Notes under the pieces: model-generated | The model's database searches: none | Told to the model about the DNA's origin: nothing | Seen by the model: only the letters and a program-made list of their open reading frames with translations | Assembly: GCA_963842445.1 (NCBI GenBank) | Contig: CAWJHF010000003.1 | Location: 143,342 to 207,341 of the forward strand | Reading direction: 5' to 3' | DNA length: 64,000 nt | DNA from: an uncultured Verrucomicrobiae bacterium | GTDB taxonomy: Bacteria > Verrucomicrobiota > Verrucomicrobiia > Limisphaerales > UBA11358 | Shown here: positions 19,025 to 28,174 of the stretch, one piece after another | Position numbering within the stretch: position 1 is the first letter of the stretch | Layout: every line of letters starts with the position of its first letter | Program-made: the position numbers and the translations under genes

Positions 19025-19992
19025 GGCAACCTCCGTAAAATAGTTTGTCCCAGCATCACCTCGACCAGCAGCAACGCCAGTCCGCACGCGACCCCCCACG
19101 GAAACAATTCCTTGAACTCCGTGTATTTGCTGATGACTGCTTCGGTTTTCTCCAATTTATCAATGTCCGCGTAAATGGCCTTGAGTTCTTCCGTGTTATT
19201 GGCGCGATAAAATTTGCCACTGGCAATTTGGGCAATTTGCCGCAACGCGTCCTCGTCCGGCAAATAATCCTGCGACAATCCCATCGCCTGCACCATTTCC
19301 CGGTTGCCCAATCCAATGGTGTAGATTTTGATGCCGACCACTGCTGCCGCCCTCGCCGCCGTGAACGGATCAACTTCGCCTGAATTGTTTCCACCATCAG
19401 TCATCAGGATGACGACTTTGCTCTTGGCCTTCAGGTCGCGCAGGCGGTTGAGCGCTGTCGTCAATCCATCACCAATCGCCGTGCGGTCTGGATTGATCAC
19501 CCCGATGTCAAGCCGGTCCAGGTCTTCAGTCAAAAAATCATGATCCAGCGTCAGCGGCGTCGCGATGAACGCGTGCGTGGCAAAAACCACCAACCCGATC
19601 CGATCATTCGGCCGGCCCTCAATAAATTTATTCAAAACGGCCTGCGCTACGTCAAAGCGGCTGATGCGTTGGCCCCCCTTGATGTAATCCGGGGTGGTCA
19701 TGCTGCCGGACATATCGAGTGTCACCACAATGTCAATGCCGCTCGCCTTCACCTCCGTCGTGCTCTTTGCCAGACGCGGTTGCGCCAGCGCGACGATGAA
19801 TAACGCCAGCGCCAACCAGCGCAAAGCCGTCAGAAGTGCGCCGGCACGCGAACGCCGGACGCTCGTCAAGCCTTTCATCAGTTGCAGTGACGAATATAAA
19901 AACGCCGGTTGCGAACCGCGCCAGCCTTTCAGCCACGCCAGCAATGGCAGCAACAGGAGCAACAGCAAAAAATATGGATGAGCGAAGGTCAT
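19021..19992 (-). CDS. batA: vWA domain protein BatA
   Basis: ALAQP, DMSGSM, DRIGLVVF, TAIGDGL, TDG, IDKLEK. Confidence 0.9.
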   Translation of the reverse strand: MTFAHPYFLLLLLLLPLLAWLKGWRGSQPAFLYSSLQLMKGLTSVRRSRAGALLTALRWLALALFIVALAQPRLAKSTTEVKASGIDIVVTLDMSGSMTTPDYIKGGQRISRFDVAQAVLNKFIEGRPNDRIGLVVFATHAFIATPLTLDHDFLTEDLDRLDIGVINPDRTAIGDGLTTALNRLRDLKAKSKVVILMTDGGNNSGEVDPFTAARAAAVVGIKIYTIGLGNREMVQAMGLSQDYLPDEDALRQIAQIASGKFYRANNTEELKAIYADIDKLEKTEAVISKYTEFKELFPWGVACGLALLLVEVMLGQTILRRLP

Positions 19993-20537
19993 TGACTAAC
20001 ATCCTGGGTCTGGAGTCCGGGTTCCGGAGTTTCCACCGGCGGCAGTTCCGGTTTTGGTTCGGTTTCTTCAACGAGCCGAAGCGCAGCGGAATGCAATTCA
20101 CGCAATTCCTGTTCGCCCGGTTCGTATTTGGCGAACTTCACGAGGTCGCAGCTCTCCAGAAATTCGCCCAGTTTTTCCTTCTGCTCCGCCATCAACCGGT
20201 CGGTGGATTGCAATTCATGCAAAAATTCCTCGGTCGTCCGCTCCGGCGCGCGAAAATCAAATCGTTCTTCGAGATAAAACCGGATCGTGTCCGAAACCAG
20301 AATGCAGAATTCCTTTGGCTGTGAAATCAACGCCAGCGCTTCCTCCAGCTTTTGTTTCGCGCGGACATGCGCCGGTACGGGTGGCTCGACTGAAATTTGC
20401 GAGCGCCGTTTTTGCCGCCAATTCCAGACGAAAACAAGGACGGCGGCCAGCGCAACCAGCGTCCACCAAAGCCATTCCCAGCCATTCGGAATCACCAACG
20501 GCGGCTTGATGTCGCGGATGTCGTTCGCGTTGGTCAT
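19989..20537 (-). CDS. bat-operon membrane-anchored protein (DUF4381-like)
   Basis: DIRDIKPP, one TM, ERTTEEFL, DLVKFAKY; usual position between DUF58 and batA. Confidence 0.75.
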   Translation of the reverse strand: MTNANDIRDIKPPLVIPNGWEWLWWTLVALAAVLVFVWNWRQKRRSQISVEPPVPAHVRAKQKLEEALALISQPKEFCILVSDTIRFYLEERFDFRAPERTTEEFLHELQSTDRLMAEQKEKLGEFLESCDLVKFAKYEPGEQELRELHSAALRLVEETEPKPELPPVETPEPGLQTQDVSQ

Positions 20538-20549
20538 GGTCTTGTTACC

Positions 20550-20617
20550 GTAGGAGCCGACATAAGGAGGCTCTGACTCTCCCTTTTAAGAACGAGACTC
20601 CTCACGTCCTCTTCCAC
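20550..20617. repeat. REP-like doublet, family GTAGGAG.CGA.GT.A.GAG.CTC (copy 1 of 4)
   Basis: Inverted arms; related copies at 26127-26218, 61745-61817 and 63494-63568. Confidence 0.75.
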
Positions 20618-20637
20618 AAAGTTCAAATGCCTTTGGC

Positions 20638-21615
20638 TCATCCGCGCAATCTCCGCTTTTCCCGGTTCTCAAAAAACCTTCCCAATGCCGCCGAGTAAGC
20701 TTCACCCGTGTGGAGTTGAATGGTGTCAATGCCGGAAGACCGGAATTGCCGCGCCAGATCCTCATTCTGCTTTCGCTGGCGCAATGCAAATGCGTCGCGG
20801 CTGCCCGCGTCGCCGGTGTTGAGCTCCAAGATTTCGCCGGTCTCGGCATCCTCCAGGATCAAACGCCCAAGGGCCGGCAATTCGAGTTCATAGCGATCCG
20901 TGATTTGCACGGCCACGACGTCGTGGCGGCGATTGGCCATGCGCAAGGCGGTTTGAACCGCTTGCGGCAATACGCCGGTTTTGGACTGCGCGGGTGTGTC
21001 CGCGCTTTGTTTCAACGCGACCTGTCGCGTGGTTGAAATCGGGGACGCGTCACCGCACTCCAAAAAATCCGAAATGACGACCGCGATGGCCTTGTGCGGC
21101 AAAACGCGGCCCATGAATTCCAGCGCGTGGACCAAATCCGTTCCGCGCCGTTTCGGCTCGGAGAAAAGCACTTCGCGAATCACCCGCAACACGTGACCGC
21201 GGCCCTTGCGCGGCGGGATGAACTTTTCCACCTCGTCCGTGAACAGGAGCAGGCCGACCTTGTCGTTGTTGCGGATGGCGGAGAAGGCGAGCACGGAGGC
21301 GATCTCGGCGGCGAGTTCGCGTTTGGACTGGTCGCGCGAGCCGAATAGTCCCGATCCGCTCACGTCCACGACCAGCATCACCGTCAATTCGCGTTCCTCG
21401 ACGAATTTTTTAATGAACGGATGGTTCATACGCGCGGTGACGTTCCAGTCAATGGTGCGCACGTCGTCGCCGGGCTGGTATTCGCGCACCTCGTCGAAAT
21501 TCATCCCCTGCCCTTTGAAGACGGAATGGTACTGGCCCGCGAGCGTCTCGGTCACGAGCCGGTTCGTGCGCAACTCGATCTGCCGGATTTTTTTGAGAAT
21601 CTCGCGGGGAATCAT
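20638..21615 (-). CDS. DUF58 protein (MoxR-associated)
   Basis: FKGQGMNFDEVREYQPGDDVRTIDWNVTAR, EERE, DVSGS, ISDF. Confidence 0.92.
   Translation of the reverse strand: MIPREILKKIRQIELRTNRLVTETLAGQYHSVFKGQGMNFDEVREYQPGDDVRTIDWNVTARMNHPFIKKFVEERELTVMLVVDVSGSGLFGSRDQSKRELAAEIASVLAFSAIRNNDKVGLLLFTDEVEKFIPPRKGRGHVLRVIREVLFSEPKRRGTDLVHALEFMGRVLPHKAIAVVISDFLECGDASPISTTRQVALKQSADTPAQSKTGVLPQAVQTALRMANRRHDVVAVQITDRYELELPALGRLILEDAETGEILELNTGDAGSRDAFALRQRKQNEDLARQFRSSGIDTIQLHTGEAYSAALGRFFENREKRRLRG
20979..21065. repeat. Palindromic element in frame in the DUF58 gene
   Basis: TTTTGGACTGCG...CGCACTCCAAAA; adds ECGDASP..SADTPAQSK after ISDF. Confidence 0.7.
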
Positions 21616-21620
21616 GGGTG

Positions 21621-21648
21621 GCGTGATGCGTGATGCGTGATGCGTGAT
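21621..21648. repeat. Heptamer tandem repeat (GCGTGAT)x4
   Basis: Directly visible, just upstream of the DUF58 start codon. Confidence 0.9.
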
Positions 21649-21662
21649 GCGGAAAACCCTGC

Positions 21663-21690
21663 TTGCGCGGGCAAATCAACGGAGTAAATT
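21663..21690 (+). promoter_or_regulatory. Putative promoter for a leaderless TA transcript
   Basis: TTGCGC-16nt-TAAATT, ATG 6 nt downstream; resembles 8462-8499. Confidence 0.5.
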
Positions 21691-21696
21691 GTTGGC

Positions 21697-21924
21697 ATGA
21701 GTGCGACGGAAATTCTTGAAGAACTGCGTCGGATGCCGGAAGTGGAACGACGTGAACTCGTTGAAACCATTGAATTGGAATTTGGCGATTTCGACGATAA
21801 ACTCACACTGGAGCAAAAAACCGAACTCGATCGCCGTGCGGAAGAATTTCGCAAAAACCCGCGCGATGGAATTCCATTTGAACAAGTCCGCGAAGAGGCC
21901 CGCAAACGCTTCGGTTGGAAATGA
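21697..21924 (+). CDS. Addiction-module antitoxin (TIGR02574-like)
   Basis: L..ERRELVE.I...LT.EQK.ELDRR..E...NP..GIP.EQV signature. Confidence 0.88.
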   Translation: MSATEILEELRRMPEVERRELVETIELEFGDFDDKLTLEQKTELDRRAEEFRKNPRDGIPFEQVREEARKRFGWK

Positions 21925-22217
21925 AGCGGGTGTGGCTCAAATCGCCCGCCGACTTGGATTACCTTCAAGCGTTGGAATGGTATGAAGAACGGCGGCCAGG
22001 CTTGGGGCAGGAATTCGACGCCGAACTTCTGGCGCTGTTCGAGCGCATCAAACAAAACCCTGAACTTTTCCAGAAAGAAACCGCTGTTGTTTGCAAGGCG
22101 CGGATGCCGCATTTCAAATACCGGATTTACTTCACGGTTGAGGGTGATGAAATCGGTGTGCTTGCCATCTGGCATCCCAGCCGGAATCCCGAAGCGCTGC
22201 GCCGCCGGCTGAAATGA
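21921..22217 (+). CDS. RelE/ParE family toxin
   Basis: A.LD..A..WYEERRPGLGQEF, F.Y.IYF, VLAIWH.SR.P; ATGA overlap with antitoxin. Confidence 0.88.
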   Translation: MKRVWLKSPADLDYLQALEWYEERRPGLGQEFDAELLALFERIKQNPELFQKETAVVCKARMPHFKYRIYFTVEGDEIGVLAIWHPSRNPEALRRRLK

Positions 22218-22220
22218 AAA

Positions 22221-22301
22221 GCCCGCGAGCGTTTCGGTCACGATGCGGTTCGTACGAATCTCGATCTGCCGGATTTTTTTGAGAATCTCGCGGGGGATCA
22301 T
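22221..22301 (-). pseudogene. Orphan 5' copy (27 codons) of the DUF58 gene; frame stays open to 21612
   Basis: MIPREILKKIRQIEIRTNRIVTETLAG vs MIPREILKKIRQIELRTNRLVTETLAG at 21535-21615. Confidence 0.9.
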
Positions 22302-22310
22302 ACGGGATTT

Positions 22311-24344
22311 TTAATTTTTAATGCGCTGTACTTGCACGGCACTGATCAATAAATCGTCACCGCCGTTGAAAAATCGGAAATCGGAAAACTTATTTTCCGA
22401 ACCACCAAAACCGGCATCGTTCACAAAAAATTGAGCCAACTTCCATTGTCCTGAATTCATGCGGCGAACAGAATAGGGATAATGTTTGTATGCTCCGCCC
22501 AGCGGTTGTCGAATATCCGTTGAATCATAATCCAATCCAATATCACCGGAACCGGAATCAAAATATGCCAAGTCAATTTCCAATGTCTTGGCGGGTTCTG
22601 GACGAAATTCATCGGGAACTTTTAGATAAAAGTAATTCGATGACGAGCGTTTCGGCACAAGCCAGCAATGTCTGCCTTCGCGTTCCTCAATCGAGAATTG
22701 GCCGTCGTCTTGAAATACCGGTGTCAATCCTTGATCACTATTTGGCAGGCCAATGATCTTTTGCATATCCGTGTTGTAGTAAGCACGAATCGTCGCAAAC
22801 TCATCTTTGGGCAAAAGAAATACATACTGCCCTGGATAGGCCGCCTCAACCCGGTCTAACACCCGTTTGATTGCGGAATAACCATGGTCGCCTTGATAAA
22901 AACCGCCAACGATACAAGTAAATCCGCAGAATATTGGTTTATGAGGGTCTGGTTTTATCTTTACGATTTGATTGAATAAAGCCTCTTCATTGTCCGCGCC
23001 CCAAGTATCAACTTTTGGTGGAAAACCAGCTTTAATTCTCCAGCCTTCGCCGAACAATCCATCGAAACCACAAGTTGTCATGTATAGGCTGTATTTTGGA
23101 CTGGGATTCGGCGCAATCCAAATGCGGCCTGAATGAAATCCAGCATCTAAACACCAACGATGATTCAAATTACACCAAGCAGGGAAAAGTCTGTCGCTAA
23201 AATCTTGAATGAAAACATATTGAAATCCTGTTGGGCCGGCAACCAATTCGTCATTGGTTGTTATTTTTGAGTAATACCAGTCCAGCAATGGAGAATCTAA
23301 TTCCTGTAACGCAGGAGCGAGTGCCGTGGCGACTGGAACTTTTCCGCGCGCCGGGTCGTGCCAAAATTTATAGAGCGGATTTTGGTCGAATTCGAGATTG
23401 TCGCCGTCGCTCCACATGATGTGGGCATAGACTTTTCCTGCTTCAGCTTTAATCGCTTTACCCGGCGTCTGTGTGTAACTCTTGTTTGGAAAACTCGACC
23501 AAAAACTTCCATTCGCATATAGCACACTTACGACGTAACCAATGCCATGCGTATTGGCAACGATGTTGCCGGCATCACCAGTGTTTGCATATCCCATCAA
23601 TGAAGTGCCAACACCGTAACCGGGTGTTCTGAAAATTTTTTCAACCTCCGGCCGCTCTTTGTCGAAATCCAGCCAAAAAACAAACCCTTTGCTTGCTACT
23701 GCGTAATCCGTTATGGGGCTATCATGGTCGGGGGCCACAAAAACCACTTTCTTGGTGCAGTGGGGCATCAGATTTGCCAGAGCCCAATCATAAGCTTCAA
23801 TTCGATTTGACCATATATTTCGGAAATCTTCCACGTCTCCTTTCCAGCTGAATTCGGAAATCAATTCATCTTTAATCGGCTCTGTTACCGGAATTCCATC
23901 TTGCTGTGAACCGGACATCAAAGCCAAATACCAGGTCCAATCTTTTTCGGGATCGTAAATGAACATTTTCTTTACTTGCCCCTGATATTTCTGAAAAAGC
24001 GTTCTCAATCCGGCATTGGTTCCCGTCAGTCTCGGCAATTCTATGTAAGGCTTTCCACAGTCCTTCAGTGGATTCCAATCCCACGGATTATTAATGAGAT
24101 AAACTTCGGCGGATTTTTGATTGATCAACCCTTGCAATGCCCGAGCAGTCATCCATGCGTTTCCGCTGTCTTTGTTGATATTGACAACACAAGCGTTCGT
24201 TGCCGCCGGCATTTTGGGAAACATTCCACTCGCGGCTTGCGCTGTTAGTTGGAACAAGCACGGAGAGAAAAAGAAAATTGCCACAAATAAATTCCGGCAA
24301 CATTTCAACCTTCGCTGTATGCACTCGTTCAAAATCATTTTCAC
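22311..24344 (-). CDS. GxGYxYP-family putative glycoside hydrolase, secreted, with C-terminal beta-sandwich domain
   Basis: ALQGLIN, DYAVA, SDGDN, WYY..T.ND.LVAGPTGFQY; visibly AT-richer than flanks. Confidence 0.75.
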   Translation of the reverse strand: MKMILNECIQRRLKCCRNLFVAIFFFSPCLFQLTAQAASGMFPKMPAATNACVVNINKDSGNAWMTARALQGLINQKSAEVYLINNPWDWNPLKDCGKPYIELPRLTGTNAGLRTLFQKYQGQVKKMFIYDPEKDWTWYLALMSGSQQDGIPVTEPIKDELISEFSWKGDVEDFRNIWSNRIEAYDWALANLMPHCTKKVVFVAPDHDSPITDYAVASKGFVFWLDFDKERPEVEKIFRTPGYGVGTSLMGYANTGDAGNIVANTHGIGYVVSVLYANGSFWSSFPNKSYTQTPGKAIKAEAGKVYAHIMWSDGDNLEFDQNPLYKFWHDPARGKVPVATALAPALQELDSPLLDWYYSKITTNDELVAGPTGFQYVFIQDFSDRLFPAWCNLNHRWCLDAGFHSGRIWIAPNPSPKYSLYMTTCGFDGLFGEGWRIKAGFPPKVDTWGADNEEALFNQIVKIKPDPHKPIFCGFTCIVGGFYQGDHGYSAIKRVLDRVEAAYPGQYVFLLPKDEFATIRAYYNTDMQKIIGLPNSDQGLTPVFQDDGQFSIEEREGRHCWLVPKRSSSNYFYLKVPDEFRPEPAKTLEIDLAYFDSGSGDIGLDYDSTDIRQPLGGAYKHYPYSVRRMNSGQWKLAQFFVNDAGFGGSENKFSDFRFFNGGDDLLISAVQVQRIKN

Positions 24345-25330
24345 GGCACCGGCAGTTCATCGAAAATCTTCTGGATGACCGTTTCGCTGGTTTTTTCCTC
24401 GGCTTCGGCTTCGTAGGTGATGGCCACGCGGTGGCGGAGCACATCCATGCCGATGCTTTTCACGTCCTGCGGCGTAACGTAGCCGCGGCCTTTGAGGAAC
24501 GCATACGCCTTGGCGGCGAGCGTCAGGTTGATGGTCGCGCGCGGCGATGCGCCGAGCTGGATGAAGTCCTTCACGGCTATCTTGTAGTGGTCCGGGTCGC
24601 GCGTGGCGCAGACGAGATCCACAATGTATTCCTTCACCTTGTCGTCCACGTAAATGTCGTTGATGACTTCGCGGGCTTTGAGGATTTGCTTCGCCTCGAC
24701 GACCGCGCTGGCGGTGGGCGTGCCGGACGTGCGGGCCATGAGGTCGAGGATCTGCCGTTCCTCGGCGCGGGAGGGGTAACCGATTTTCAATTTCAACATG
24801 AAGCGGTCCACCTGCGCTTCGGGCAACGGGTAGGTACCTTCCTGTTCGATGGGATTTTGCGTGGCCAGCACCAGGAACGGTTCCTCGAGCTTGAAGGTTT
24901 GCTCGCCGATGGTGACCTGTTTTTCCTGCATGGCTTCGAGCAACGCGCTTTGCACCTTGGCCGGCGCGCGATTGATTTCGTCGGCGAGGATGAGATTGGC
25001 GAAAATTGGCCCTTTGCGCGTGCTGAAACTGCCGGATTGCGGGTTGTAAATCTGTGTGCCGATGACGTCGGCGGGCAGCATGTCCGGCGTGAATTGCAGG
25101 CGCGAGAATTTGACGTGGATGCAATTCGCCAGTGATTTGACGGCCAGTGTCTTGGCCAGGCCGGGCACGCCTTCGAGGAGAACATGGCCGTTGGCAAGCA
25201 AGCCGATGACAAGCCGCTCGGTCAGATAGGTCTGGCCGACAATGACTTTGCCAAGCTCGGTGAATAGTGGATGAGTAAATGCGCTTGCTTCTTTTACCGC
25301 GTCGTTGATTGCAGAGATTCCCGTGTTCAT
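24341..25330 (-). CDS. moxR: MoxR family AAA+ ATPase
   Basis: LLEGVPGLAKT, QFTPDMLPAD, ADEINRA, ATQNPIEQEGTYPLPEAQ.DRF. Confidence 0.95.
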   Translation of the reverse strand: MNTGISAINDAVKEASAFTHPLFTELGKVIVGQTYLTERLVIGLLANGHVLLEGVPGLAKTLAVKSLANCIHVKFSRLQFTPDMLPADVIGTQIYNPQSGSFSTRKGPIFANLILADEINRAPAKVQSALLEAMQEKQVTIGEQTFKLEEPFLVLATQNPIEQEGTYPLPEAQVDRFMLKLKIGYPSRAEERQILDLMARTSGTPTASAVVEAKQILKAREVINDIYVDDKVKEYIVDLVCATRDPDHYKIAVKDFIQLGASPRATINLTLAAKAYAFLKGRGYVTPQDVKSIGMDVLRHRVAITYEAEAEEKTSETVIQKIFDELPVP

Positions 25331-25391: not shown

Positions 25392-26246
25392 TCACGCGCC
25401 AGGCAGAATCTCAACCTGCTTCACCGCCAGCCAGCCGATTTTCCCGGAACCGTCGGCAACCTGCACCCAGTCGCCGTGCCGGTCCATGATCGCGAGTTCC
25501 GCGCCATCACGCGTGATGAAAGCGCTTTGCGCCTCACCAAACGGCCCACTGCGCGCCGTCACTTCCATTAAAACCACCACAGCGGTCTGCCTGGAAAAAT
25601 GTTCTGCCGCCTGCAAGCCCAGCGCCGCGCCGAATAGAACGGTCAGAACTGCGAAAAGGGATGTTGCGCTCTTCAATTTCGCACCGGACGCAGGGCGGAT
25701 CTGTCGCGCTGCGTGCAAAATAAACGTCAGCCAAAACGCACCCGCCGCCAGCATCGTCCATTCGTTAAGCGTCAACTGGCCGAGCCATCCTTGCCAGCGG
25801 CTTTCGCGAATTGTCGAGCCTTGAACCTGGTTGCGGACGAATTGCAGGTTGGCGCGGATTTCCGCGTCACGCGGTGCCAGGAGCGCAGCCTGGCGATAAG
25901 AGGCAATGGCCTTGCCGAGATTGCCCGCTTTGAATTCCGCGTTGCCACAGTTAAACAGCAGTGCCGGTGACTGCGCGCCGGTTTGCAAGATTTTTTCGTA
26001 GGCGCCCGCCGCCTCGGCAAATTTTCCCTCGGCGTAAAGTTTGTTCGCCGCCGAAAAATCTACGGCAACACCTGCCGCGAGAATGTTCCCGGCGGAAATC
26101 AGCAGGAACAGCAAACTCAAACCCCAGTAGGAACCGGGGTAACGAGGCTCAAACTTAAATTGGAAATCAGAAATTGGAAATTGGGAATAAATCAGAGACT
26201 CCTTACGTCGTCTCCCACAAAGGTAAAATGAAAACCTCGTTTTCAT
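25392..26246 (-). CDS. batE: BatE-like TPR + SH3 protein
   Basis: AN.LY..G.F..A...Y, N.GNA TPR, two TM, W.QV....K.GW; a REP element occupies the N-terminus. Confidence 0.8.
   Translation of the reverse strand: MKTRFSFYLCGRRRKESLIYSQFPISDFQFKFEPRYPGSYWGLSLLFLLISAGNILAAGVAVDFSAANKLYAEGKFAEAAGAYEKILQTGAQSPALLFNCGNAEFKAGNLGKAIASYRQAALLAPRDAEIRANLQFVRNQVQGSTIRESRWQGWLGQLTLNEWTMLAAGAFWLTFILHAARQIRPASGAKLKSATSLFAVLTVLFGAALGLQAAEHFSRQTAVVVLMEVTARSGPFGEAQSAFITRDGAELAIMDRHGDWVQVADGSGKIGWLAVKQVEILPGA
26127..26218. repeat. REP-like doublet with internal AAATTGG heptamers, inside the batE 5' coding region
   Basis: GTAGGAACCGGGGTAACGAGGCTC...GAGACTCCTTACGTCGTCTCCCAC. Confidence 0.75.
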
Positions 26247-28174
26247 GCCTTTAACTTCTGGAGTTCACCGACGACATTTTCAAATTGCGCGGCGACCGAG
26301 TTCAATTCGCTGCTGCCGCGTACCGGCGCGTAGCGCGCCTGGTTGCAAAGCTGGAACAACTCACGCAATCCGTTCAGTAGATTTTCCGAAGCGCCCCGCA
26401 GCGCGGGATGTTCATCAATCAAATTTTCCGTGATTGACGACGCCGGACAATCGAGCCGTTCGCCAAGCTGTTCCTGCAACAGCCGGAACAGCATGGCAAA
26501 AAATTCGTCCGGCTTGTTCTCCGCCGCGCATTTTTTCAAATCGTCCATCCCACTGGCGATAAGCTGGGCGACAGCACGTTGTCGCCGCAGGCGCGGGTTG
26601 TTGGCCAGACTGTCCGCGCGTTTGCGCCACACCAACGCCGCCAGAAATCCGAGCACCGGCAATCCCTGCAGCGCGAGAAATACCGGCCGGATCACAAGCG
26701 GAGGGCCGGCCGCCACCAGCGCGCCCATTTCCTCCTTGATGGGCATAATGTCCTGCGGCGAAGAAGGATTTTGCGCGCCGCCGGCCCTGACCGCTGCGCT
26801 CGCGGGCACGGTGGCCTTTCCGGCCGAACGGACCGCGAGCGGCACGGAGGGCTGTGTAAGCGTGCGGTAATTCCCGTCGTCAGGATCGAAAAATGAAAAG
26901 GACAATTGCGGCAATTGATGGACGTCCGTGCTTTGCGGTGTGACGATTTCCTCGAACGTTTTTGTCCCTTCGATGCCAAGCTGGTCGCTGTTTTCGATTT
27001 TCGACGTGGGCGGAAAGAGTTTGAAACCGTTCCAGCCCGACTGATCGGGCAATTTTAACACGCCGAAATCGCCGCGACCAGCGATTTGGATATGCACGGT
27101 GATGGGGTCGCCCACGGCAACGTTCGTCGGCCCGGCGGTGGTGGTCATCGTGTAATGGCCGACCGCGCCATTGAAATCCGCCGGCCTGCCTTCCGCCGGC
27201 AGCGGCAGCGAGTCCACACCCAGCGTGTCGGTGGCGACTGAAATCGGTCTTTGGACGTTGCGGCGGAACATTCCAAACGGGTCGAAAAATGGGTCAGACT
27301 GGCGATCATTCGACGGAACAAGCAGGACCATGGTGACGGTGACGGGGCCGATGTGCAACGTGCCGGCTTTGGTTGCGGTCAAAGCGAGTTTGGCCGGGAT
27401 GACGTTGTAAATGGCGTCGCCGATTTGCACGAGACTTTGATTGTCGCCGGCGATCTTTCCGACGGAAAATCCGTCCGCCGGCACGCCGGTGATTTGCGGC
27501 TGCCTTGCCAATTGCGTGTCCTGCCGGTAAAAAAGTTGGAGGTCGGCGGTGATGGTCTCGCCCGCATAAACTTCCCGCTTGGGCAGGGCCAGTCTTGCGA
27601 AGGCAATCTGCGAATCGGCGTTGGCCCCGGCCGGCTGCGGCGCACCGGGTTTGGTGACCGTCAATTTCAACGGCTGGCTGGTCAACGTCTGTCCACCCAC
27701 ATTCGCCGTCAGCGCCGGGATGATGAATTGGCCCGCCTGCGTGGGCGTGACCACGTAATTGAACGAGTCATAACTGGTGCGGTTCCCGTTGATGTTGACG
27801 TCTATATGCGCCGGCCCGCCGACCAGCACGAGTTGAAGATTCGACACGGTCATGGACGAGGGCAGTTGTTCCGGCGAGCCGCCTTCAAATTTCAATAATA
27901 GCGTCGCGGTCTCGCCCAGCACGATGGTATCGCGATCCAAAGAGGCGGTAAAGCTCGTCGCCCGGGCAGTGATCACACCGAAACCCAGCGCGCCCAGAAA
28001 CAAAAGAACGGCAAGGCAAAATGGAATCACTCTCCGGTTGCACACCCGGAAAAAGCATTTTGCCGAAGGCGGATCCCCGCGGGCCGCAAGGGGAAAACCC
28101 AACGACTCGCTTTCATTCTCAGTTTGTTTTTGGCCATTATCCATCCACTCAACAAAAAGACATCGTCCACGCAA
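26243..28174 (-). CDS. batD: BatD family protein (start uncertain)
   Basis: ASLDR..I.LGE, G.F.IPA, YAGE, F.GAVG.Y, TM, QARYAP. Confidence 0.85.
   Translation of the reverse strand: MRGRCLFVEWMDNGQKQTENESESLGFPLAARGDPPSAKCFFRVCNRRVIPFCLAVLLFLGALGFGVITARATSFTASLDRDTIVLGETATLLLKFEGGSPEQLPSSMTVSNLQLVLVGGPAHIDVNINGNRTSYDSFNYVVTPTQAGQFIIPALTANVGGQTLTSQPLKLTVTKPGAPQPAGANADSQIAFARLALPKREVYAGETITADLQLFYRQDTQLARQPQITGVPADGFSVGKIAGDNQSLVQIGDAIYNVIPAKLALTATKAGTLHIGPVTVTMVLLVPSNDRQSDPFFDPFGMFRRNVQRPISVATDTLGVDSLPLPAEGRPADFNGAVGHYTMTTTAGPTNVAVGDPITVHIQIAGRGDFGVLKLPDQSGWNGFKLFPPTSKIENSDQLGIEGTKTFEEIVTPQSTDVHQLPQLSFSFFDPDDGNYRTLTQPSVPLAVRSAGKATVPASAAVRAGGAQNPSSPQDIMPIKEEMGALVAAGPPLVIRPVFLALQGLPVLGFLAALVWRKRADSLANNPRLRRQRAVAQLIASGMDDLKKCAAENKPDEFFAMLFRLLQEQLGERLDCPASSITENLIDEHPALRGASENLLNGLRELFQLCNQARYAPVRGSSELNSVAAQFENVVGELQKLKA

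Follow-up and report, generated by a model that had tools for sequence, protein, structure and literature searches.

Toxin-antitoxin (TA) genes can settle inside a bacterial operon in an arrangement that leaves the operon strand readable by ribosomes from one side of the insert to the other. We describe this arrangement in a 64,000-nucleotide stretch of DNA (hereafter the window, to which coordinates refer) from an uncultured Verrucomicrobiae bacterium of the order Limisphaerales, where a TA cassette lies backwards at the 5′ end of a DUF58 gene in a moxR-bat operon. The start of the DUF58 gene is present on both sides of the cassette, and the upstream, orphan copy opens a frame of 229 codons that crosses the antisense strand of the insert and ends on the start codon of the intact gene. 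We refer to this frame as the relay open reading frame (ORF). Of 76 inserts at the corresponding site in related DNA, 66 have an orphan frame that closes with this ATGA overlap and 72 have one that is open to or past the next start, and the length of the insert is 2 mod 3 in 69. These regularities indicate that the frame and the length of the inserts are under selection.

The relay ORF (21612-22301, minus strand) was found in the ORF listing as a stop-free translation. It starts at the orphan DUF58 ATG (22299-22301), passes over the antisense of the toxin and antitoxin genes and then over an array of heptamers, (GCGTGAT)4, and reaches the functional DUF58 start, where its TGA (21614-21612) overlaps the ATG (21615-21613) as ATGA on the minus strand. 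A first-pass annotation of this DNA had described both the unbroken passage from position 22301 through the reverse of the TA pair, its promoter and the array and the overlap of the TGA with the DUF58 ATG, and both can be read directly in the sequence. A same-strand overlap of stop and start that is conserved among relatives is the geometry expected of a translationally coupled gene pair.

The insert is flanked by an 81-nt direct repeat of the target 5′ end (21535-21615 and 22221-22301; 91% identical, spacing 686), and the DUF58 gene downstream of it is undamaged. The downstream arm makes up the first 81 nt of the functional gene (20638-21615, minus strand; 325 aa; PF01882, E 8e-80). The upstream arm (22221-22301, minus strand) is an orphan copy of the first 27 DUF58 codons and supplies the start codon of the relay ORF. 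Because the seven base differences between the arms are synonymous or exchange Leu and Ile, both copies look as though they have evolved as coding sequence. In relatives the orphan copies keep the ATG in 46 of 47 cases and are largely conserved from codon 1 to about codon 21, after which they drift without gaining stops or frame shifts. When the genome from which the window comes (the source genome) was scanned with strict settings for a repeated ATG, a relay frame and a long downstream ORF, this locus alone was returned; a looser list held 345 repeat pairs, mostly intragenic repeats.

Conservation of the first codons could mean that the relay ORF encodes a functional protein, in which a DUF58 N-terminal peptide is fused to an overprinted antisense product. 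The good conservation of the first ~21 orphan codons and the length of the ORFs (87-494 aa) speak for such a protein. However, the product of the relay ORF in the window matches no Pfam family, orphan copies are degenerate in amino acids past the start region, and what follows the peptide is mere antisense of the cargo, across unrelated cargo types and lengths. We regard a protein function as very unlikely.

The inserts were collected in three sets, and all genomes compared are metagenome-assembled genomes or metagenome contigs. In a DNA search of 61 relatives, many proved to contain two or three DUF58-start copies at distances of 0.3-1.2 kb. The first set comprised 40 relative loci and the window; 27 of these 41 have two or three DUF58 starts and yield 32 intervals from an orphan to the next start (the additional, incomplete copies in L024 and L036 were counted within a single interval at each locus, and a contig-edge partial match in L054 was dropped). 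The second set came from a search with a toxin subfamily, the full toxin alignment being too diverse. It returned 26 loci, all from Verrucomicrobiota and mostly labelled Limisphaerales or subdivision 3, of which 13 were new and gave 15 intervals. Ten duplicates of the first set, L079 (no copy) and L082 (one copy at a contig end) were excluded, and the tally omits L089, where the orphan has no ATG and is 2707 nt distant. A third set, for replication and unbiased as to cargo, was drawn by scanning metagenome contigs for the DUF58-start pattern; at least 77 loci on at least 65 contigs were found, and the matches listed contain 29 intervals on 22 contigs. The combined 76 inserts, from Limisphaerales genomes and metagenome contigs, include no two that are alike at the 97% identity level, and at 90% they fall into 73 clusters. 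In a class-wide DNA search, 52 of 201 genomes had a match, and two matches per genome occurred within the genus and the order only; the duplicated start was not found outside the order, single matches being seen in all 30 matching genomes of other orders, within a reach limited by DNA similarity.

The outcome is similar in each collection. Among the first 47 intervals, 40 end in ATGA, five run past the next start, one stops 5 nt before it and one stops early, and among the matches listed for the replication set the corresponding numbers are 26, one, one (2 nt before the start) and one. In total, then, six of the 76 frames run past the next start, two stop at most 5 nt short of it and two stop early. 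Two of the first five run-past frames continue in frame into the next orphan and on to a later stop, and the other three end inside DUF58, 23 nt in (two cases) or 152 nt in (one case). Both early-stop inserts hold a gene on the sense strand, VanY in L043 and PDDEXK_3 in L148, so that these stretches would still be translated, a real sense-strand ORF covering them. Within the first set the relay frame contains no stops in 30 of 32 intervals, against 1-19 stops in each of the other two operon-strand frames.

Constraint on length is equally evident. The first 40 ATGA cases include 31 distinct insert lengths, from 260 to 1169 nt. Between the antitoxin start and the restored ATG lies a spacer that is non-coding on the TA strand and carries a repeat with a 7-nt period; its length is a multiple of 3 in 36 of 40 inserts, distributed over nine length classes of 39-114 nt, and the four that deviate are precisely those whose frame runs past the next start. 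All 40 spacers lack stops in the relay frame, compared with 14 and 20 of 40 in the other two frames. In twelve of the 40 TA inserts the spacer measures 39 nt and contains no heptamers; there the restored ATG has no leader of its own and is preceded just by the reverse of the TA −35 region, and all twelve end in ATGA.

The relay frame at this locus alone is unremarkable. The toxin codons are in phase with it (21921 and 22299 are both 0 mod 3), and antisense stops in this aligned phase arise only from TTA, CTA and TCA codons. In the source genome TTA and CTA make up 2.6% and 1.5% of Leu codons, and TCA 8.8% of Ser codons. Of 2340 windows of 229 codons sampled from the 780 longest source-genome ORFs, 28.9% were stop-free in the aligned antisense phase, and 0.47% were so in each other antisense phase. 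When the synonymous codons of both TA genes were redrawn from genome usage, 49% of 2000 trials preserved the open frame of the window. The same control, applied to the TA-coding part of 24 loci, kept the frame open at per-locus rates of 12-49% (median 32%). The natural frame is open at every one of these 24 loci, and the product of the per-locus chances is 6.6e-13, a value that is overstated since the loci are related. Within-gene permutation of synonymous codons left the frame open in a median of 79% of trials; this null is too weak, because it retains the absence of TTA, CTA and TCA. The expectation of the first-pass annotation, that homologous inserts keep an open frame more often than codon-shuffled controls, is borne out when the counts for the 76 inserts are set against the per-locus range of the redrawn controls.

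An explanation by chance and composition would hold that the aligned antisense phase is stop-poor and that openness is common to the relatives by descent. It draws on the frequencies just given and on long antisense ORFs opposite moxR and across a cassette on contig C1 of the source genome (both described below). However, it leaves unexplained the excess of 2 mod 3 lengths and of spacers in multiples of 3 over nine length classes, the openness of the frame across the antitoxin, which lies in the unfavourable phase, and across unrelated cargo, and the coincidence of the only early stops with sense-strand genes. Moreover, toxins of about 38% identity have fully randomised synonymous sites, yet 24 of the 24 tested loci (which are not independent) are open. 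We consider chance to be extremely improbable as the explanation. Selection on the relay frame appears well supported, and its significance comes from the comparison among loci.

Overlapping stop and start codons (AUGA) allow translational coupling, and untranslated mRNA within an operon is subject to Rho-dependent polarity. We think it likely that selection maintains the relay frame to let translation pass from one side of the insert to the other, which would avoid polarity and couple the frame to DUF58. A mobile type II TA cassette would have lodged backwards in the 5′ end of DUF58, bringing or creating a second DUF58 start. Ribosomes would initiate at the orphan ATG, 9 nt past the stop codon of the preceding GxGYxYP-family gene, translate a meaningless 229-codon frame through the reverse of the cassette, including its promoter, and through the heptamer leader, and stop at the UGA that overlaps the DUF58 AUG, where the AUGA could pass them to DUF58 by termination-reinitiation. 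About 0.7 kb of operon mRNA would thereby be kept covered and protected from Rho loading, polarity and decay, and persistence would be limited to inserts with translational transparency. The preference for one phase may be understood in the same terms: a length of 0 mod 3 would fuse the meaningless frame to DUF58, a length of 1 mod 3 would make it end inside DUF58, and a length of 2 mod 3 would produce AUGA. The source genome encodes Rho-type proteins.

The arrangement resembles ordinary coupled genes in that the stop of one ORF falls on the start codon of the gene that follows and in that polarity is expected if the mRNA is untranslated. It differs in that the upstream “gene” would be the antisense reading of a selfish cassette, open only to be translated. 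The first-pass annotation had suggested that the insert may be selected to be non-polar on the operon. The part of this proposal that concerns selection on the frame is upheld by the comparison of inserts; that the frame is translated, and that non-polarity or coupling is the purpose it serves, we infer. Both processes are treated, in the portions accessible to us, in reviews of translational coupling and Rho-dependent operon polarity (PMC12360218, PMC7858274).

Several points weigh against this reading. Antisense open frames are common (29% of aligned-phase windows of 229 codons), at least nine related loci have an antisense frame that exceeds moxR in length, and a chance frame of 439 codons crosses another TA cassette in the source genome. 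The per-locus controls are weak, a median of 32% (codon-redrawn) or 79% (permuted) staying open, and the inserts are kin by descent or exchange, so that the counts overstate the number of independent events. In uninserted loci, and behind sense cargo, the DUF58 start follows an untranslated leader of ~40-95 nt. Because DUF58 can apparently start behind such a leader, coupling is not obligatory; avoidance of polarity is probably the main pressure and coupling a refinement. Metatranscriptome contigs over the region are short pieces of relatives that carry neither strand nor transcript-end information, and their depth is inflated over the repeated heptamers. Finally, Rho dependence in Verrucomicrobiota is an assumption of the proposed mechanism.

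The cassette itself is a type II TA system as judged by protein families and gene layout. Its toxin gene (21921-22217, plus strand) belongs to the ParE/RelE family (PF05016, E 1.8e-7, 32.1 bits against a cut-off of 23) and its antitoxin gene (21697-21924, plus strand) to Unstab_antitox (PF09720, E 2.9e-8, 34.1 bits against a cut-off of 23.3). The antitoxin gene precedes the toxin gene, with a stop/start overlap, ATGA, at 21921-21924, and the toxin stop abuts the orphan copy. The 605-nt cargo holds the TA pair alone and encodes no recombinase. A search of all source-genome ORFs with hidden Markov models for a second TA system of the same family recovered the window pair and two marginal hits, and no toxin homologue away from the DUF58 site was seen among the 26 loci from the toxin-subfamily search.

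A candidate TA promoter (21663-21690, plus strand) consists of TTGCGC (21663-21668), a gap of 16 nt and TAAATT (21685-21690), which stands 6 nt from the antitoxin ATG. The block is retained in diverged cassettes as TTGCGC or TTGCAA, 16-17 nt and a TAAATT-like element ending 6-7 nt before the antitoxin ATG, and in the short-spacer class the −35 box is 4 nt from the complement of the DUF58 ATG. This position suggests that the TA mRNA is nearly leaderless. A consensus promoter scan of 21300-22600 returned no promoters, the candidate lying below threshold, and intrinsic terminator prediction over the same interval returned no terminators. The leader RNA is not unusually structured (z 0.41).

By the geometry of the locus, mRNA of the operon would be complementary to that of the toxin, as the first-pass annotation pointed out. 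An alternative explanation is that relay translation is selected for the benefit of the cassette, either because antisense ribosome traffic tunes TA expression or because a ribosome-pushed polymerase beats convergent transcription. Such a benefit is in keeping with the prevalence of TA pairs among the cargo, their conserved promoter being directed against the operon, and with the geometry, which guarantees an overlap of sense and antisense. Inserts that have no TA match, however, also keep the frame and the ATGA, including those with repeat-like or unknown cargo (spacings of 260, 272, 389, 401, 404, 590, 809, 941, 1169 and 1190 nt). We judge this explanation unlikely.

The cargo is diverse. 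Median pairwise identity among ParE toxins of the inserts is 38% (209 pairs, range 21-90%), and L024 alone carries a toxin close to that of the window (85% identity). Two ParE subtypes occur with different junctions, the toxin stop lying at +84 in type A and at +69 in type B. Other inserts hold a PemK toxin, unknown sequence, or repeat-like elements, the shortest of them 260 nt long. A repeat-like element follows about codon 22 of the orphan copies in L038, L042, L044, L046, L071, L085 and L086, where it yields the same short antisense peptide motifs and is present either alone (260 nt, L046) or beside a TA pair. The relay frame is open through this element.

The moxR/DUF58 junction is a hypervariable hot spot. 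Depending on the genome, it is occupied by genes for ankyrin, TPR plus DUF6924, HEAT, CN-hydrolase, VanY, DUF6304, SIMPL, DUF5069, IS200-type transposase, ADP-ribosyltransferase, CdiI or HNH proteins, or, in the window, by the GxGYxYP gene, and many of these sense-strand passengers likewise end in ATGA on the first DUF58 start. Duplicated-start inserts can form arrays of up to three. Because toxin similarity is unrelated to the similarity of the host DUF58 genes (Spearman −0.04), the cassettes appear to be exchanged horizontally; hosts with 97% identical DUF58 genes can hold toxins that are 39% identical. No integrase family was found among the ORFs of the window and no recombinase among 108 flanking ORFs of 40 loci. 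A repeat search of 20500-24500 likewise revealed no attC-like inverted repeat at the cassette borders, which are formed by the direct repeats of the DUF58 start.

A flanking direct repeat of this kind would be the expected product of Campbell-type or homologous recombination with a circle that carries one copy of the start, and the TA pair would oppose loss of the cassette by recombination between the repeats. In 48 loci, synonymous diversity of DUF58 is ~0.30 in the first ~70 codons and 0.43-0.52 in the rest, which fits either frequent recombination or an mRNA-level constraint near the hot spot.

The regularity of the inserts might be sought in the insertion process itself, as a by-product of site-specific recombination in a fixed phase or of gene conversion between the starts. 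Junctions are indeed fixed within cargo families, at the +84 and +69 positions, and the lower synonymous diversity at the beginning of DUF58 (0.30 against 0.43, p ~1e-4) suggests that recombination is frequent. Yet neither process offers a mechanism that would set the length of the far, non-coding side or clear stops from the cargo, lengths vary in steps of 3 within families, and no recombinase was found among the 108 flanking ORFs. We therefore see little chance, perhaps as little as for a functional relay protein, that the regularity arises in this way.

Beyond selection for relayed translation, we lean slightly towards a wider interpretation, in which the moxR/DUF58 junction of Limisphaerales hosts an integrase-free cassette system whose exchanged cassettes carry a spare host-gene start and are translationally transparent, and would therefore be invisible to expression of the operon. 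Parts of this arrangement have counterparts in known mobile elements. SXT/R391 elements integrate in the 5′ end of prfC and supply a replacement 5′ end. As in that case, the insert lies between direct repeats of the 5′ end of its target, which stays functional with a restored start; here, by contrast, the inserts are 0.26-1.2 kb long, lack an integrase and form arrays, and the old start would drive translation across them.

Sedentary chromosomal integrons also carry TA cassettes (PMC5371416, PMC8191803). As far as the accessible portions of these articles describe them, integron TA cassettes are similarly small, bring a promoter with them, sit alone or in tandem at a single hot spot of the chromosome, and are often opposed to the direction of the array, which they plausibly stabilise. 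Unlike integrons, the loci described here show neither IntI nor attC-like repeats, the sequence repeated in them is a host-gene start, and they occupy a site within an operon. In the portions of the open-access literature available to us, no precedent for the relay-frame arrangement was found.

The 76 different inserts offer natural, replicated evidence that DNA inside an operon is filtered for translatability, and thus a population-scale readout of polarity and coupling constraints in an uncultured phylum. They point to a route by which selfish cassettes may colonise the interior of operons without cost and to a simple design rule for non-polar insertions, and they warn annotators that long conserved ORFs may be selected without having a functional protein product. 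Arrays of duplicated-start cassettes further suggest an undescribed form of gene-cassette exchange with no dedicated recombinase in view. If our interpretation is correct, some ORFs form a class whose sole selected property is their translation, and selfish DNA has a new mode of life in operons, in which an addiction module guards against loss through the flanking repeats.

The heptamer array of the window (21621-21648), which reads (ATCACGC)4 on the operon strand, forms the leader of the restored DUF58 start and is contained in the relay ORF. The first-pass annotation had proposed that heptamer copy number sets the frame. This idea is not sustained: the source genome has 178 tandem heptamer arrays (at least three copies, with many different units), the short-spacer inserts dispense with heptamers, and it is the total length of the spacer that is constrained. 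An ORF of at least 80 aa starts from −6 to +60 nt downstream of 114 of the 178 arrays, the C-rich strand being the gene strand, and the arrays look like a general 5′-leader feature of the source genome and not a frame switch. Arrays at relay sites are read through; genome-wide, of 129 gene-proximal arrays, 40 include a stop triplet. Nothing was seen that would point to switching by copy number. A repeat search detected no inverted partner array at this cassette, contrary to the idea that the heptamers are arms of a hairpin cassette. Some arrays elsewhere in the genome form divergent pairs within one intergenic region. Start-codon-adjacent heptamer direct repeats, TAACTGA, have been reported from Beggiatoaceae (PMC4679880). 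According to the accessible portions of that report, they too are tandem 7-nt arrays directly upstream of start codons at many genes; in the present case the units vary, and those at relay sites contain no stops on the gene strand.

The genes around the insert follow the order batD, a TPR/SH3 gene (batE), moxR and the GxGYxYP gene, then DUF58, DUF4381, batA and batB, all on the minus strand. From the ORF listing and Pfam searches, batD lies at 26243-28174 and the TPR/SH3 gene at 25392-26246 (both minus strand); moxR, an AAA_3 ATPase gene by its Pfam match, occupies 24341-25330 (minus strand) and is the operon gene upstream of the insert; and a weak match to DUF4381 covers 19989-20537 (minus strand). 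The GxGYxYP-family gene (22311-24344, minus strand; 677 codons) is a sense-strand passenger that fills the interval from moxR to the orphan start. Its G+C content of 0.42-0.47 compares with ~0.6 in the surrounding sequence. Its GTG start overlaps the moxR stop as GTGA and its stop codon lies 9 nt ahead of the orphan ATG; DUF4381 and batA are joined by a further overlap, ATGA.

In L025, L027, L029, L033, L039, L052, L058, L060 and L062 and in the window (24200-25135, plus strand), an ORF of 311-408 codons that matches no Pfam family lies antisense to moxR and equals or exceeds it in length. Such frames recur by chance in these genomes and are a trap for annotators.

A second cassette with a duplicated start is present in the source genome at the 5′ end of an RluA-type pseudouridine synthase gene (contig C1, 16485-17233). 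There, a 75-nt direct repeat (85% identical, spacing 674) surrounds an antitoxin-like ORF and a PemK/MazF toxin gene in sense orientation, and the cassette is crossed on the antisense strand by the chance ORF of 439 codons.

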